64,000 nucleotides of DNA from Escherichia coli (GTDB lineage Bacteria; Pseudomonadota; Gammaproteobacteria; Enterobacterales; Enterobacteriaceae). The stretch is taken from assembly GCF_045037415.1 (NCBI RefSeq), contig NZ_CP173438.1. One strand, written 5' to 3'. Shown one piece after another: positions 15,953 through 23,973 of the stretch. The translations under genes and the position numbers were made by a program. The number at the start of each line of letters is the position of its first letter. Within the stretch, counting starts at the first letter, position 1. The notes beneath the pieces were generated by a model. That model was not told the DNA's origin. It saw only the letters and a program-made list of their open reading frames with translations, and did not search any database.

Positions 15953-17128
15953 TATATTCCTTTCATAATATTCTGAAGGAGTAATATTACCTCTCATGAA
16001 TAATTGATAGTCATTTTCGGGGTGATGGATATAATATTTACCACTTCCATCTTCACCATGTTGCAAAGGAGGCAGATCAGATAATGCATCCTTTACAGAT
16101 ACCCAAGATTCCTTATCTTCTGTTAATTTTTGTGGAGGTTCAATTGAAAATAAAGGGTCGTTTGAACCAACCAATATAACCCTTTTTCGGCGCTGAGGGA
16201 TTGCATAATGTTCAGAGTTTAATATCCATCCATTCATAGTTTTCATGGTTGATGAGAATTCTTCTTTGACTCTTTCAAAGACCTTACCTTTTTCCATATT
16301 CAACAAACCAGCAACATTTTCAAAAATAAAACCGTTTGGTTTTATCTCATTTAAGAGAGATTTATAATGCATAAAAAGTGAATTTCTTGGATCATCCATT
16401 GTTCTGGCATTTCCTGCCGTAGAAAATCCCTGGCATGGGGGTCCACCAAGTATCCATAATTGTTTATCAAAATATAATTTCTTAAATCCTGATATTTTAT
16501 CTGCTATTTTTGAAAAAGTTTCATTATCAGAAATGCTGCCACATAAAACTTCTTTGTGAACATTGTTTGAATATGTTTGTAGATATTTTTCTTCAATATC
16601 ATTCGCCAATAATGGAGTCCATCCAGCCCATTTGAATCCTAGTCCCAGCCCTCCAGCTCCGGAAAATAAATCGATATAATAACCAGTATTACCTATCGCC
16701 TTCTCTATTTCTTTCGCAATCAGAAAAGCTAAAAATGGGGGCACTGCATTACCGATTTGGGTATTAATTGCTGTTTGACCTCCGAAGAAAATAAAATCAT
16801 CCGGGAACGATTGTAGTCTTGCAGCTTCTCTCTGGGATAGAACACGATCTTGCTCATAGTGAATATGGCAACCATTCCCAGGTCGGTTAAAATATGTATT
16901 GATAGTATATGCAGGCATATCTGGAAGTAATCTACCGTAGTATGTTGAACGGCTTCCTTTTCCTTGTGCATAACTATCCCTAATTTGCTCTATTCTTTTA
17001 GACGGTACATCTAAAGGAATATTTTTCCAGTTGCCACCTGGCGGTACTGAGTTAACAATCATCATATCCAATTCACTTAGCTTTGCTGCCTTGTGATTGG
17101 GAATCATAAATGTTTCACTTTTAGTCAT
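15938..17128 (-). CDS. DNA (cytosine-5)-methyltransferase, circularly permuted motif order
   Basis: Motifs IX/X (RLQSFPDDFIF, QIGNAVPP) precede motif I (DLFSGAGGLGLGF), IV (GGPPCQGFSTAGN), VI (FIFENVAGLL), VIII (QRRKRVILVG). Confidence 0.85.
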   Translation of the reverse strand: MTKSETFMIPNHKAAKLSELDMMIVNSVPPGGNWKNIPLDVPSKRIEQIRDSYAQGKGSRSTYYGRLLPDMPAYTINTYFNRPGNGCHIHYEQDRVLSQREAARLQSFPDDFIFFGGQTAINTQIGNAVPPFLAFLIAKEIEKAIGNTGYYIDLFSGAGGLGLGFKWAGWTPLLANDIEEKYLQTYSNNVHKEVLCGSISDNETFSKIADKISGFKKLYFDKQLWILGGPPCQGFSTAGNARTMDDPRNSLFMHYKSLLNEIKPNGFIFENVAGLLNMEKGKVFERVKEEFSSTMKTMNGWILNSEHYAIPQRRKRVILVGSNDPLFSIEPPQKLTEDKESWVSVKDALSDLPPLQHGEDGSGKYYIHHPENDYQLFMRGNITPSEYYERNIKPSL

Positions 17129-18761
17129 AATGTTGAAAAATCCTCAATAAACTTTCTTTTTCAGCTAACTCAATCTTATCAAATGAAGACAGAAGCTTAT
17201 TAAATTCATTCAAATCCAATTTGTAAATATTTTTGGCAACATAAGCCTCAATTTTCAACTCAGCATCACAACATCCCTCTATGCAAGAAATCACAAGTTG
17301 TTTTAATTCAGAATGTTGTAATAATATTTTTTCAGACGGTATTGCAGTTTTTCGTAAGGCTGACAATGATACATGACCAGTAGCTAAAAAGCTTCTTAAT
17401 TGAAATTCAAAACAAAGGGAGTTTATAATACCAAGCAAACTAAAGAGCGAATCTTGCGAACCACTTTTATAATAGACCACCCCTAATGAATTCCCTGCCA
17501 AAGAGTTAGGAGGTATTATCGTTGCAATCATTCGCCTTTTTTGACTCGGGCGTGAAATGTCACGCCATGCAATCCTTACGAAATTAGAATTGGATAGAAC
17601 CTTATCAATTTTTTTCGTTATTCTTAAGCTCTTCTCATTATGAAAATTATACCTCCCAATCATTTTTCCTTTAATGAATAATAATCCGCCGCCACTTTTT
17701 TGTGTCCAGTCACTACTACCAGTTTCATCTATTTCTCTTCCTGCCCATATCTCTCCATTTTTTTCCAGACTACCCCATGTTGGGTATCCCTCTTGCAGCT
17801 TTCTTAACAAATGAACGGCATGAACACCTTGAGATACCGGAATGCTAAGATATTGAGAATCTATACTAGACAAATCAAAAAAACCTAGTGATTTAATATT
17901 TAAGTTTTTATCATACACACTAAGTTGAATATTATCATTAAGGGATTCACCTTTATTAAAAATAAAAGAACATGAAGAAACATCAGCACCGCCGAATAAT
18001 TTAGCCTCAGCTGGATAATAATTTATGCAATCAATCCTCCCTGAATTAAAAAACTTTTCACGTAATATGTACGATTGTTCATCTGCGAAAAAAGATGCAG
18101 GCATAACTATAGCTACCAATCCATTTTTATTACATATTTCTAAGCTAAGTTCTGCACCAACACGTGAAAGATTAGTCCCCCACCCAGCAAATTTACGCTT
18201 CGGCTGAGAATATGGCAATACTCTTGACAAATAATCATCAAACTCACGAAGAGAGTCTATATACATCGATTTCATAGATGGTTCAAAAAAATCGAGCTCT
18301 CTAGAATCTGGTTTTATATTCTCCCAAGGCGGATTGGTTATAACACAATCAAAATAATCAACATATTTTTTAAATTCATAAAAAACATCACTATTTTTTA
18401 TAGTAATGTTAATATTTGCACCTGCTAACTTAAGTTCAGACAACGCATTTTTAGCATAAGTGAGGCCTGTATTTTCTATATCGAACAGATAAACATTCCA
18501 CTCTACATCTGGAAAACCATTTATCATCCATTGTTTAATAAGCAATGTAATAAGTCGACCATCCCCTGAAAATGGATCTGCGACATTATAACTTTTTTTA
18601 TCACAGGAATTTATCAATGGTAATAACTTCTCTATCATCAAAAGAGCTATTTTTGGATCTGTATAGTATTTACCTGTCGCTTTTTTAGTGAATTTTGTTG
18701 TCTCGTCCAAGGACAGTGAATTAATTAAATGGATATGTTTCATGTAAAATATCTCTTCCAT
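17121..18761 (-). CDS. N6-adenine DNA methyltransferase
   Basis: Motif I VADPFSGDGRLI and motif IV VITNPPWE; stop overlaps the start of the downstream C5-MTase by 8 bp (operon). Confidence 0.8.
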   Translation of the reverse strand: MEEIFYMKHIHLINSLSLDETTKFTKKATGKYYTDPKIALLMIEKLLPLINSCDKKSYNVADPFSGDGRLITLLIKQWMINGFPDVEWNVYLFDIENTGLTYAKNALSELKLAGANINITIKNSDVFYEFKKYVDYFDCVITNPPWENIKPDSRELDFFEPSMKSMYIDSLREFDDYLSRVLPYSQPKRKFAGWGTNLSRVGAELSLEICNKNGLVAIVMPASFFADEQSYILREKFFNSGRIDCINYYPAEAKLFGGADVSSCSFIFNKGESLNDNIQLSVYDKNLNIKSLGFFDLSSIDSQYLSIPVSQGVHAVHLLRKLQEGYPTWGSLEKNGEIWAGREIDETGSSDWTQKSGGGLLFIKGKMIGRYNFHNEKSLRITKKIDKVLSNSNFVRIAWRDISRPSQKRRMIATIIPPNSLAGNSLGVVYYKSGSQDSLFSLLGIINSLCFEFQLRSFLATGHVSLSALRKTAIPSEKILLQHSELKQLVISCIEGCCDAELKIEAYVAKNIYKLDLNEFNKLLSSFDKIELAEKESLLRIFQHYD

Positions 18762-18999: not shown

Positions 19000-19790
19000 C
19001 CCGTTATCTCGATACCCCTTAAGAACCCCTTCCGCAACTGCAACATAATCTACGCTCATCCACATGCCTGGTGCGTATTACCGTGAAGGAGATCGGTGAG
19101 TTATTGAGTGATCTCCTTTCATGAAAATACGCACCTGGCTTTAACTGTTCCTGATATAAGTTGACAGTTTTCTGTCCGTAAAACGGTTGATGAACTTCAT
19201 CGGGCGTTTTGTATTTCAATGCCAAATGTGACCGCTCATGGTTATAAATTGCCACGAATTCTTTTACCATTTACCGGCCCTACGTCAGCTCTGCAGGACG
19301 CGAGAGTAAAAACTCATTTTCAGGATTCCGTTTATCCACTCAGCCTGCGCATTCTGGTGGCAGTTATAACCATTAGTCATTGAACAGGTTATTGATAAAT
19401 AATTAAAAAACTCAGTTTTCTGGCTCGCCTGCTCAAGCTGTTCTTCAAGTTCCCTGATTCTTTGCTCGGGTGTCAGCGGGACAGTCGCCAGAGCCACAGG
19501 CAGTCTCCTCTTTACCTGGTCAGGAAGTCCGGGGCTCCAGTCAAGCCGGCCATATTTACGCAACCAGACAAGAACGGTGGAGCGCCCCTGAATGCCATAA
19601 CTGCAGCCGGCCTGTTTATAAGTCATCTCGCCTTTTTCAACCTTCTCAACAACGGCTATTTTAAAGGATAGAGGATAATCACGTTGAGTGCGTTTGAACC
19701 CAGACATCATCACGTTCTCCGGGTTTAAGTCAGGAACGTGTCATAGCTATTCAGGACGGGTCACCGACACAAAAAAAGTCGCCCTTGAGC
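19000..19790 (-). mobile_element. IS3-family element remnant (internally deleted OrfA/OrfB), boundaries approximate
   Basis: ORF 19285-19713 has OrfA-like HTH (MSGFKRTQRDYPLSFKIAVVEK...) fused to integrase-core C-terminal pieces; 19140-19270 encodes the OrfB C-terminus (...AIYNHERSHLALKYKTPDEV). Confidence 0.55.
19072..19133. mobile_element. 62-bp mini element made of the two IS21-family terminal repeats joined back to back, flanked by 5-bp direct repeat CCTGG
   Basis: 19072-19100 matches the end at 19817-19845; 19101-19133 matches the end at 22364-22396; CCTGG at 19067-19071 and 19134-19138. Confidence 0.6.
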
Positions 19791-19901
19791 GACTCGATTT
19801 GCATACGGTATGGTGCTGCGTATTACCGTGAAGGAGATCGGTGAGTAACATCGATGGAGATCGGTTCGTGTCACTTTCACAGAACCGTTTTTAAATTACC
19901 T

Positions 19902-20651
19902 TCACTGATCTCCTTCGGTCAACGGAGATTGTATTTTCCGCATTGATTCTCCTTTAAGTTCGATCTTGATACTGCCATGAACCAGTCGATCTAGGATGGC
20001 ATCCGCATGTGTGGAGTCTCCGATCATTTTGTACCAGTTTTCCACCGGCAACTGGCTCACTACGATGATTGAGCCTCGTTGGTACATCAGATCCACTATT
20101 TCCAGCAGGTCGCTACGCTGTTCTGATGAGAGAGGTTCCAGCCCCCAGTCATCCAGAAGCAGCAGATCGCTATTATTCAGCCTGGTCAAAAGTTTGCTGT
20201 ATCTTCCATCAGCATGCCCCTGATAGCACTGTTCCATCAGCGCTTTAAGGCGATAATAGTAGACCTTGTATCCCTGTCGGCAGGCATTATGACCAAGTGC
20301 ACATGCCAGGAACGTTTTACCGCTGCCGGTGGCCCCGGTCAGTAAAATATTTTGTTTCAGGGTTAACCAGTTTCCCTGACTGAGTGAACGGATGAGGGCC
20401 CTGTCCAGCCCTCTATTGTTACGATAATCCAGCTTTGATAACTCAGCATTAAGTCTGAACCGTGCATGTTTGATCAGACGCTCTGCCTTCCTGTTTTCAC
20501 GGCAGGTTAGTTCTTCTGCTGTCAGTAATGACAGGCGTTCTTCGAAGCCCAGCTCCTGGTATGTGCCCGGTTGAGCAAGTTGCTTTTTAAGCGCATCACG
20601 GAAGCCGGTGAGTTTAAGTGCGGTCAGTTGTTCGTAAAGATGATTCATCAT
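19902..20651 (-). CDS. istB: IS21-family IstB ATP-binding helper protein
   Basis: 249 aa; Walker A LTGATGSGKTFLA, Walker B LLLLDDWG. Confidence 0.9.
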   Translation of the reverse strand: MMNHLYEQLTALKLTGFRDALKKQLAQPGTYQELGFEERLSLLTAEELTCRENRKAERLIKHARFRLNAELSKLDYRNNRGLDRALIRSLSQGNWLTLKQNILLTGATGSGKTFLACALGHNACRQGYKVYYYRLKALMEQCYQGHADGRYSKLLTRLNNSDLLLLDDWGLEPLSSEQRSDLLEIVDLMYQRGSIIVVSQLPVENWYKMIGDSTHADAILDRLVHGSIKIELKGESMRKIQSPLTEGDQ

Positions 20652-20662
20652 TGGATCCCGTA

Positions 20663-22204
20663 TCAGTGGTAATACTCACTGCCGCGTACGTTTTCGTGTT
20701 CCATCGTGGATAACAGATCTGGTTTTGGATCCTGAACAGGTTGTTTATCCAGACCTTTTTCCAGGATCGATTTAATACCTGACAGACGCCATACCTTTGT
20801 TTTCAGAGCTCTTGCACATGCTGCATTAAGTCTGGCTTTACTGTATTTTTTATGAAGGTTCAGGAGTCCAAGGCAGAAGCGATAGCTTTGTTCCGGATGT
20901 GGACGAGAGTTCAGTATATGAAGCACATAACTATGAGTTTCACTGCCTATGTGCCCCGCCCATTCCAGAAGACGCTCTGGCGTCCAGGTGGCATGCTGTC
21001 GATGAGCTTCAGGCATGTGCTCGTTGCGGGTACTGTAGCCATAAGTACGCTTGCGCGGGTGCACAGCAACCTCCTGCCCCTGATTGAAGAGTCTTACCAG
21101 TTCTCCGGAGATCCATGCTTCCAGTTGCTGGCCTAACAGCGAACATGGAACCGAGTAGTAATGTTTGTCGATTTCCACGTGGTAATCGGCATGAACTCTG
21201 ACTTTCTTCACCAGGGTGTAACTGTAACTGGCTTCAGGAAGAGGCTTCAGTGCGGGTTTATCAAGCTGGATGAAGAGTTCTGCACGTGAATAACCCAACT
21301 TCTGCATTATTTTGTTATTCAGTCTTTCCAGCAACTCCCGAATGCGCTGATTAAGCGATGCAAGGCTGTAGAAGATCTCATGCCTGATTCGGGCCATGAT
21401 CCAGCGTTCAACAACCTGAACGCCAACTTCAGCTTTGGCTTTATCTTTCGGTTTACGTGGCCGCGCAGGCAAAACTGCGACATTATAATGCTCAAGCATC
21501 TGCTGGTAGGTAGGGTTAACGTCAGGATCATACTTACATGCCCTGGATGTGGCGCTTTTCAGATTGTCCGGAACAACAAGTTCAGGAACGCCACCCAACC
21601 ACTGGAAGCAGCGAACATGACTCATCACCCAGTCTTCAAGCTGCTGAGACCAGGTGGCCTCTGCCCATGTGTAACTTGATGCCCCGAGAACAGCTACGAT
21701 GACCTGAGCAGTTCTTATTTCTCCGGTCTCAGGGTCGGTAACGCCAACGGTAGGTCCACAGTAATCAACGAAAAGTTTTTCGCCAGCTTTATGTACCTGA
21801 CGCATTGATGGTGAAGTGGTTTTGAGCCATTCACGGTACATCCGGCAGTAATGGTTATAGCTGTAAAAACCGCCTGGATTACGCTCACAGTATTCTTCCC
21901 AGAGTAGCTGCAGCGTCACGCATTTATTACGCAGTTCCCGGTGTACTGTAGCCCAGTCAGGCAGAGAGTGCTTCTTCATCTTAACCTGGGTCTGAAGGAA
22001 CGCATGTTTTAGTTTTGTATCATCCCATCCTGTAGGTAAGGGCCACTGCTTTATGCCAAGTTGAGCCGCCCGATTAGCATATCTGGATACAACGGAAGGG
22101 GAGATTGCAAGACTACGACCAATTTGTCGATGGCTGAGTCCAACACCGTATTTAAGCCTAAGAATTTCTTTAAGTTTTCTCATAGAAATTGGAACTGTTG
22201 GCAT
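20663..22204 (-). CDS. istA: IS21-family IstA transposase
   Basis: 513 aa; N-terminal HTH plus DDE integrase core. Confidence 0.9.
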   Translation of the reverse strand: MPTVPISMRKLKEILRLKYGVGLSHRQIGRSLAISPSVVSRYANRAAQLGIKQWPLPTGWDDTKLKHAFLQTQVKMKKHSLPDWATVHRELRNKCVTLQLLWEEYCERNPGGFYSYNHYCRMYREWLKTTSPSMRQVHKAGEKLFVDYCGPTVGVTDPETGEIRTAQVIVAVLGASSYTWAEATWSQQLEDWVMSHVRCFQWLGGVPELVVPDNLKSATSRACKYDPDVNPTYQQMLEHYNVAVLPARPRKPKDKAKAEVGVQVVERWIMARIRHEIFYSLASLNQRIRELLERLNNKIMQKLGYSRAELFIQLDKPALKPLPEASYSYTLVKKVRVHADYHVEIDKHYYSVPCSLLGQQLEAWISGELVRLFNQGQEVAVHPRKRTYGYSTRNEHMPEAHRQHATWTPERLLEWAGHIGSETHSYVLHILNSRPHPEQSYRFCLGLLNLHKKYSKARLNAACARALKTKVWRLSGIKSILEKGLDKQPVQDPKPDLLSTMEHENVRGSEYYH

Positions 22205-22917
22205 AGGTATCCTTTACCGGAATGGCAAAAGATACAGATCAACACACCTGTGAAGTTCCAATAACATTGATGGAGATCACTGAATAACAAAATGAGTCAA
22301 AAGTGATCTCCATCGATGTTATTCAGCGATCTGTTCAAATGTTATTACCCGATCTCGATGGAAGTTATTGAGTGATCTCCTTTCATGAAAATACGCAGGT
22401 GCGAAGGCCGGACTCAAACATGCGATTTAACCTCATGATTTAAAATTGTTAATAATAAACAACACCATCCTATACCAACACAGATACCAACACGAAAAAT
22501 CACTGGTTTTCGGCATCGAACCAGGACAATCAGGTCCTGATTGAGATACCGAGCTCTGTTACTCGTCATCTTCCTCGACAGGCTCCATTGCATCAAGTGG
22601 TACTCGCACCATCGCGATAGAACCAATCCGGATAAAAGCATCTTCCCCATCTATATCGGTTAACTGATATCGCTTACTTGATGCCGGATAATTGTGTCGA
22701 TTGGCAACAGTGTACTCTTTCGTACAGCCAGAATGTGGCAGACTGAGGTGGAATAGATAACGTCCGTATGCCCGCTGACCACCTCCGGGCGGGAGAGTGT
22801 GGTATCTGACATCATCATTTTTCCTTTCTGTTTATAAATGAAAATGCCAGCCGTGTTCAGGCTGACGTCAGGGAAGTGAAATCGGGTGAGTGATCTTCAC
22901 TGGTTCTGGTACAAAAG

Positions 22918-23110: not shown

Positions 23111-23599
23111 TTACCAGTCGAAAGTGGGTAAACCCGGCAGATATCCGGCACTGGCATCCAGATGAATGAGACTGACACCATAACACCGGATGAGTGTGAC
23201 GACCAGACGACGGAACGTTTTTGACAGCCCCAGGCGCTTAAGCCGCAGAACCGGGTATGACCACGTATCGGTACGTAACAGATAACCGGTACCGGTAAAA
23301 TGAATCCATTCTGATTCACCGAAGTCACTGGTCTGGTGTGACAGCGAGTACAGCCAGGCGTTGTCCGTTTCCGTGATATGTGCGGTACTGCAGCGTATGC
23401 CGGTAAGGGCAACAAATGGTGGCGTGCAGTCTGCTGAGGTCCGGTCAGATTCATCAACAACACGAAGGGAGTAGCCGTTATCGCAGACCATGTTAATCAG
23501 TTCAGCGAGATTAACACCATCAATGTCAACGACAATGCGCCCCATGTTCAGCGCCTGCACGTTAACGCTGTCGGCTTCCAGCGTCAGGGCCAGTTTCAT
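23111..23599 (-). CDS. YeeW-like hypothetical protein
   Basis: 162-aa ORF overlapping the cbtA stop by 4 bp; conserved position after cbtA. Confidence 0.55.
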
Positions 23600-23973
23600 C
23601 GTTTCGCCTCCGGATGCTTCCCCAGGGTAATGTTATTTACCGTTCTGTAATTGTCGCGGATCATCAGGCCTGTTGCCCGGCGAGCCCGGAGGATATCGAT
23701 GCTGTTTATTAACTGAGAGTGGGTACAGGCGCTGAATCCCGGCAGGTCGGTACGTACCAGTGCGTATTTTTCCACGAGAAAGTTCACTGCATCACACAGT
23801 GAAATGCCTGCCTCAATATGCTGCTCAATCACACGTTCATCAGCGAACGGTGTGTCATTCAGCGTAAGGCCGTAGTGCTGGTCCAGCAGTCGGGTGAGCA
23901 GTGTCTGCCAGATGGTGACTGGAGACGGGCAGCACGATACCTCCCGTACATGCGTGTCGGGTAATGTTTTCAT
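23596..23973 (-). CDS. cbtA: CbtA/YeeV-family toxin (type IV TA, cytoskeleton inhibitor)
   Basis: 125 aa; ...[48 protein letters not shown]... matches recalled YeeV/CbtA. Confidence 0.85.

Follow-up and report, generated by a model that had tools for sequence, protein, structure and literature searches.

The closest described systems to the structure reported here are the stubs left behind by transposons and the miniature elements derived from insertion sequences. 'Nearly precise excision' of Tn10, which is said to go back to work by Ross in 1979 and Foster in 1981, reportedly removes the DNA between short direct repeats that lie just inward of the transposon tips; those repeats are said to be longer than the one described below, and the event is reportedly driven by very long inverted repeats. 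Bacterial MITEs are small and non-coding, with IS-derived terminal inverted repeats, a target duplication and a strong hairpin. To our knowledge they are mostly 100 bp or more, a size from which a 62-bp unit is far removed, and a literature search, with ISfinder outside its scope, found no described example from the IS21 family. Elements of this family duplicate 4-8 bp of their target.

Three published results bear directly on the locus. ISEc12 interrupts tssM in ST131 clade C with a 5-bp target duplication, ACTGC (PMC10711316). For IS5376, in vitro integration by the IstA transposase needs two complete direct repeats in each 55-bp end, and an IstA tetramer synapses two supercoiled ends (PMC10122671). 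A review of IEE places IS21 among the families with circular intermediates and copy-out transposition, and proposes that strand switching at microhomologies during copy-out can lead to loss of the IS (bioRxiv 10.1101/2023.06.07.543989).

The stretch that we analysed (the window; 64,000 nucleotides of Escherichia coli contig NZ_CP173438.1) is a genomic island that carries an Alw26I/Eco31I/Esp3I-family restriction-modification system and a CbtA/YeeU-type toxin-antitoxin system, and that adjoins a tRNA-Leu gene in one genome; the island segment is found in 633 of the 5426 complete E. coli genomes. The Alw26I/Eco31I/Esp3I-family adenine methyltransferase gene lies at 17121-18761; related genomes have dcm and the endonuclease upstream of it. 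At 23111-23973 is a CbtA-family toxin cluster that includes DUF5983 and DUF957 genes.

Positions 19072-19133 hold a 62-bp unit made up of the tips of ISEc12 only, with CCTGG on either side (19067-19071 and 19134-19138, plus strand). Its first 30 nt (19072-19101, plus strand) are identical to 19817-19846 and form the outer part of the istB-side end, with one GGAGATCGG repeat; its last 35 nt (19099-19133, plus strand) are identical to 22363-22397 and form the outer part of the istA-side end, with one GTGATCTCC repeat. In the neighbouring full-length copy istA and istB lie on the minus strand, which makes the istB-side stretch the conventional right end of the element and the istA-side stretch the conventional left. 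The two stretches overlap in the trinucleotide AGT (19099-19101, plus strand), which is common to both parental ends (30 + 35 - 62 = 3), and the k-mer spanning this joint reads GGAGATCGGTGAGTTATTGAGTGATCTCC. The first-pass annotation had recognised both matches, at lengths of 29 and 33 nt that in fact extend to 30 and 35 nt; it had placed the end of the full copy at 22396 instead of 22397, and had described the ends as joined with nothing between them, where we find the 3-nt overlap.

Allowing up to three mismatches, the 62-mer occurs once in the window (0 of 100 shuffles), and each of its tips occurs exactly twice. The unit has no coding content, and a promoter and terminator scan around it gave nothing above background. 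As a single strand it is predicted by folding to form a strong hairpin (-20.6 kcal/mol, z = -9.4), which is expected because it consists of two inverted ends.

The parent family is represented 745 bp from the unit by a full-length ISEc12 of 2581 bp (19817-22397, minus strand). Its istA (20663-22204) and istB (19902-20651), both on the minus strand, encode the two proteins that characterize the IS21 family: the DDE transposase IstA, which scored 310 bits against NF033546 (cut-off 160), and the AAA+ helper IstB, which scored 270 bits against NF038214 (cut-off 200). The tips read TGCG...CGCA and so end in CA, as IS21-family terminal repeats do, and the two ends are alike to about 65 nt from each tip, with GGAGATC motifs repeated at both (inverted repeats I1 and I13). 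From copies with proteins that RefSeq calls 'IS21-like element ISEc12 family' it differs at 0-2 bases, and ISEc12 copies are near-identical across genomes at the same level (0-2 mismatches in 2581 bp). The duplications flanking ISEc12-type insertions are GGTGC, CCTGG, ACTGC, GAAGA and ACCGG, each of 5 bp, and TGAC, of 4 bp. Set against this parent, the unit has tips identical over 30 and 35 nt and a 5-bp duplication as published (PMC10711316), but it lacks istA and istB, measures 62 bp rather than 2581 bp, and retains at each end only the outermost transposase-binding motif, less than half of the roughly 65-nt end.

The full copy has a duplication of its own, GGTGC (19812-19816 and 22398-22402, plus strand), which is separate from the CCTGG of the unit, as the first-pass annotation had stated; a single GGTGC occupies the position in four loci from other genomes (L002, L005, L001 and L008). 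Among complete E. coli genomes, ISEc12 stands at GGTGC in 62 only, and it is missing from most of the carriers of the 62-bp unit that we examined. The unit is thus not derived from its neighbour, a source that we considered and rejected on these grounds; the insertion at GGTGC is a later, independent event, more recent than the unit.

The origin of the unit is best read from the other alleles at the CCTGG site. An intact 2581-bp ISEc12 occupies it in SF-088 and EC4, and loci L054 and L056 hold full ISEc12 between the CCTGG copies. In O177:H21 the site carries a 1876-bp ISEc12 that has lost 699 bp of istB in a deletion at a 6-nt microhomology; in APEC O78 and S171-1 it carries copies truncated on the istA side, and in N68 and PA45B 33 nt of each ISEc12 end with a 1.63-kb IS3-like element between them. 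One genome, that of strain 25403 (L002), was found with an empty site, a single CCTGG and no insert. All inserted alleles share the identical base pair, orientation and CCTGG copies, and flanking sequence differs between mini, full and partly deleted alleles by 0-1 mismatch in 1400 + 560 nt. A chimeric query, in which the last 60 nt of the left flank, up to and including CCTGG, were joined to the first 60 nt of the full-length end, was completely covered in 66 genomes, most of them with one contiguous match. The CCTGG flanks of the unit are accordingly a real target duplication, as proposed from the sequence of the window: the single CCTGG of 25403 and the full ISEc12 between the same copies in SF-088 and EC4 rule out that they match by chance.

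In strain 25403, a full ISEc12 lies 25 bp from the empty site (around 4066-4070 of L002), its ACTGC duplication ending 25 bp before CCTGG. The single CCTGG in this strain could be the ancestral empty site or the product of a precise loss of the palindromic stub.

With full, partly deleted and truncated ISEc12 at the identical site, in the identical orientation, with the same duplication and within identical flanks, the 62-bp unit is probably a deletion remnant that formed in place from a full-length ISEc12 inserted at CCTGG, rather than an element that arrived in miniature form. The earlier description of an internally deleted derivative of the neighbouring IS21-family element type holds; the accompanying suggestion that it had transposed as a MITE-like mini element does not agree with the intact, partly deleted and truncated copies at the identical site. 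One full-length insertion followed by differing paths of decay is the simplest history for these alleles. In the proposed sequence of events, a full-length ISEc12 would have inserted at CCTGG in an ancestor of the island, duplicating 5 bp. Later, in the lineage of this window, a single 2519-bp deletion between two AGT trinucleotides (at nt 28-30 counted from the istB-side tip of the full element and nt 33-35 from its istA-side tip) would have taken out istA and istB together with the inward part of each terminal repeat, leaving a 62-bp palindromic stub between the original duplication copies that would since have been inherited vertically as a lineage marker. The events probably fell in this order, on grounds of parsimony rather than of a rooted tree and with a single empty-site genome found.

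The allelic series and the 3-nt overlap are direct observations; how the deletion happened we infer. The route may have been slipped-strand or another microhomology-mediated joining, perhaps aided by ends that were paired as a hairpin or held by transposase. Two properties expected of such a remnant are present to differing degrees. It lies where its parent lay, between the duplication copies of that parent, as the allelic series and the identical flanks demonstrate. A joint at short direct repeats is a weaker match, with only the 3-nt AGT at the joint and a better repeat of 8 nt, TCGATGGA, 5 nt further inward that is unused here and was never seen used elsewhere. The stub resembles the Tn10 remnant in being short and palindromic, in comprising both outermost ends and in lying at the original site between the original duplication copies; unlike that remnant, it involves a 3-nt microhomology and inverted repeats that are short and imperfect. 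The strand-switching model of the IEE review accounts for removal of an IS, and its application to a product that keeps both tips is an extrapolation.

The unit is ordinary IS decay, unusually completely documented. For this window it is a neutral scar of little consequence that marks a large E. coli lineage, being present with the same flanks in 544 of the 5426 complete genomes, and it shows that the island once carried ISEc12 at the CCTGG site. The series of empty, full, partly deleted and tips-only alleles in natural genomes makes it a clean worked example.

The same locus is also found in 12 independent metagenome contigs. Its carriers include an O25b:H4-ST131 strain, a strain labelled EcN, and SSGw2, whose chromosome record has no other ISEc12 end. 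The unit had been taken as evidence of recent IS21-family activity; its presence in 544 genomes, SSGw2 among them, speaks against this, and the recent event is instead the insertion of the full copy, in 62 genomes. A bare 62-bp query matched 603 genomes, compared with 544 for the flanked locus. By inference and not by count, the excess of 59 consists mostly of a diverged 70-bp relative next to papX, and if so, the unit is essentially confined to one locus in complete E. coli genomes. The window holds one copy, no second copy occurs in any genome examined, and an identical unit is present on plasmid pKSE-C30_1. Neither a gapped pattern nor a joint pattern matched anything in the collection of species-representative genomes.

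The recurrence of the joint at other sites counts against a deletion in place. On the IncF plasmid pKSE-C30_1 (CP124989, about 136004-136065), an identical 62-bp unit, joined at the same point, has GAAGA on both sides; more than 2,600 plasmids have this site intact with GAAGA present once, and no full-length ISEc12 was found there among the plasmids searched. The same or a near-identical joint occurs at two further metagenomic loci and, in diverged form, on a Yokenella plasmid. Since the AGT joint recurs and the 8-nt microhomology is left unused, a purely random microhomology deletion is not an easy explanation.

Tips-only units of this kind take several forms. Metagenome contigs carry an identical 62-bp unit at a third locus, without a duplication. 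A 58-bp unit with its joint at GT, between GATCGG and TTATTG, lies between 6-bp palindromic GTATAC repeats inside an IS66-family element in three genomes (L003 1501-1558 in EC11; also strains 1303 and JNU), and a search for a full-length allele at the EC11 site found none. Diverged 58-bp and 62-bp versions are present on other plasmids, one of them from Yokenella. A diverged 70-bp unit, composed of 33 nt, GGGG and 33 nt, lies upstream of papX with flanks GTGCA and GAGCA in strain 998 (L004 1500-1569) and is also found in 18 metagenome contigs (L020 and others); its parent is a relative of ISEc12 with an end reading CTTCCATG. A 61-bp variant, with one T fewer, adjoins a truncated gene for an IS66 transposase, while its other side borders two unrelated sequences in different metagenome contigs (L029 versus L050 and L053), which suggests rearrangements at the end of the unit. 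A longer ISEc12 derivative of 114 bp joins 99 nt of the istB side to 25 nt of the istA side through a 10-nt direct repeat, TGATCTCCTT; it has ACCGG on both sides on plasmid p1493-5 (L013 1501-1614) and on many other IncF plasmids; of the 185 plasmid records with at least 80% coverage of the 62-bp query, most are of this kind, and the search for a full-length allele at this IncF site found none.

Metagenomic locus C (L018, L019 and L028) encodes a TonB-dependent receptor, a YadA-like adhesin and an Rck/OmpX-like protein, and was found neither in complete E. coli genomes nor among the 100%-identity hits of the plasmid search with the 62-bp unit. In two of its three contigs (L018 and L028, versus L019), a second, different IS21-like element (...GAATAGAGCGGAATACGCA) has inserted 135 bp away from the 62-bp unit, so that IS21-family ends cluster here too.

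The joints of the short variants all lie 26-34 nt from the tips. These recurring joints may reflect rare mobilisation in trans, an abortive event whose geometry is set by transposase-held ends, or a route through the IS3-like element. It is conceivable, if on the whole doubtful, that ISEc12-type elements have a specific route to tips-only units of 58-70 bp with joints at this distance, and such a route could take two forms. IstA and IstB may still move units with one binding repeat per end, in which case no bacterial MITE would be shorter and the two-repeat requirement seen in vitro would be contradicted; or abortive transposition, by template switching or end joining of transposase-held ends, may make the units repeatedly, both at resident copies and at new sites. 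Clustered joints, one apparently new plasmid insertion and an IS3-like element at the inner edge of IS21-family ends together raise the questions of how short an IS21-family end can be in vivo and whether defined footprints are a product of abortive transposition.

For the unit at CCTGG, one alternative is a deletion in place that took two steps: an IS3-like copy would have inserted in each ISEc12 end, recombination between the two would have produced an allele of the N68 type, and loss of the IS3-like element would have left the stub. N68 and PA45B carry exactly this intermediate at CCTGG, with the IS3-like element lacking a duplication, and at L014-L016, three more loci, copies of the element likewise lie against IS21-family ends, 32-33 nt in from the tip. 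The terminal G-run of the IS3-like element, whose end reads ...ACACAGGGGG, matches the GGGG at the centre of the 70-bp variant, and the route would account for the clustering of joints at 26-34 nt. We nevertheless regard it as quite unlikely here. The AGT joint fits a full-length parent with 3 nt but an N68-type parent with only about 2 nt, the 62-bp unit contains no IS3-like remnant, the N68 type is known at this site from N68 and PA45B only, and excision is not the usual mode of IS3-family elements, which normally copy out (review, bioRxiv 10.1101/2023.06.07.543989).

We consider it very unlikely that the unit is a working MITE that arose elsewhere and was moved into CCTGG by the IstA and IstB of a full ISEc12. 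In its size, its lack of coding content, its terminal inverted repeats, its 5-bp duplication and its strong hairpin it does look like one, and the GAAGA-flanked unit of pKSE-C30_1, set against thousands of plasmids with an empty site and none with a full-length allele, would be readily explained by transposition, as would the GTATAC-flanked 58-bp variant in the IS66 element of three genomes, again with no full-length allele. Joints clustered at 26-34 nt from the tips would also be expected if movement needed complete outer binding sites. At CCTGG, however, full and partly deleted ISEc12 occupy the identical site, and an independent mini insertion at the same base pair is far less parsimonious than decay of a resident copy; unlike bacterial MITEs, the unit is single-copy and vertically inherited at this locus and has a full-length allele at the same site. 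Movement as a mini would show as copies at several loci, each with its own duplication; the observations here are mixed, with one copy in the window, one extra locus with a duplication of its own (pKSE-C30_1) and several others without any duplication, and a second chromosomal locus is not demonstrated, the 59-genome excess being attributed mostly to the 70-bp variant. Judged by the requirement of IS5376 IstA in vitro, the ends would not suffice for the transposase: with one binding repeat per end where IS5376 IstA needs two, the unit should be inert, and a length of 62 bp would not let it bring its two ends together in the tetramer that has been published (PMC10122671). By this analogy the stub is most probably immobile.

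Gene conversion, with the 30-nt and 35-nt arms recombining to turn the full form into the 62-bp one or vice versa, would require the joint to have arisen only once, elsewhere. This would explain why several loci share the same joint, and near-identical ISEc12 copies would make the arms perfect substrates; two exchanges would be needed, arms of this length are barely enough for RecA-dependent exchange, and no genome examined has a second 62-bp copy that could have served as template, all of which makes the explanation highly improbable. A collapse of the full copy's two ends during assembly, a concern raised by the first-pass annotation, can be dismissed, since the identical structure stands in 544 complete genomes and 12 independent metagenome contigs, the joint lies at non-homologous positions with an overlap of only 3 nt, and some carriers have no full ISEc12.

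In N68 (L001 2372-4000) and at three more independent loci (L014, L015 and L016), the 1.63-kb IS3-family element (CGGCGTTTTTCAAGG...CTGACACAGGGGG) sits directly against IS21-family terminal repeats, 32-33 nt from the tips of the latter, and is not flanked by a target duplication. Its placement suggests an IS that homes in on the inner edge of such ends and is able to remove what lies between them. IS1353 inside IS1326 in Tn21 may be a parallel.

The unit itself borders an IS3-family sequence, a remnant at 19139-19713 (minus strand) that RefSeq labels 'IS3 family transposase, incomplete' and that matches NCBIfam NF033516. An orfA-like N-terminus (19285-19713; profile positions 2-78) is fused to the extreme C-terminus of the transposase (19139-19270; profile positions 344-369). 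The last profile-aligned residue is followed by 17 codons before the CCTGG site is reached, and reconstruction of the open reading frame in the uninterrupted allele has it crossing the site and continuing for 30 more codons. A search for terminal repeats of the remnant found no significant inverted repeat. Matches to the IS3 N- and C-terminus thus bear out the association with an IS3-family remnant noted earlier; the claim that the unit is nested within it is reduced to a position in the remnant or at its edge, since no terminal repeat of the remnant is definable.

The stretch around the remnant has been hit by ISEc12 repeatedly. Across strains, five insertion positions, all in one common orientation, fall within about 780 bp (19037-19816 in the window): ACTGC at 19037-19041 (plus strand), used in strain 25403; CCTGG at 19067-19071; TGAC at 19229-19232 (plus strand), used in isolate AHB10 (L057), which also carries the 62-bp unit; a position at about 19316-19320; and GGTGC at 19812-19816. 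This stretch is a repeated target and a regional hotspot for ISEc12. Several of the five targets fit a loose N-S-T-G-S pattern, and the published insertion in tssM duplicated ACTGC as well.
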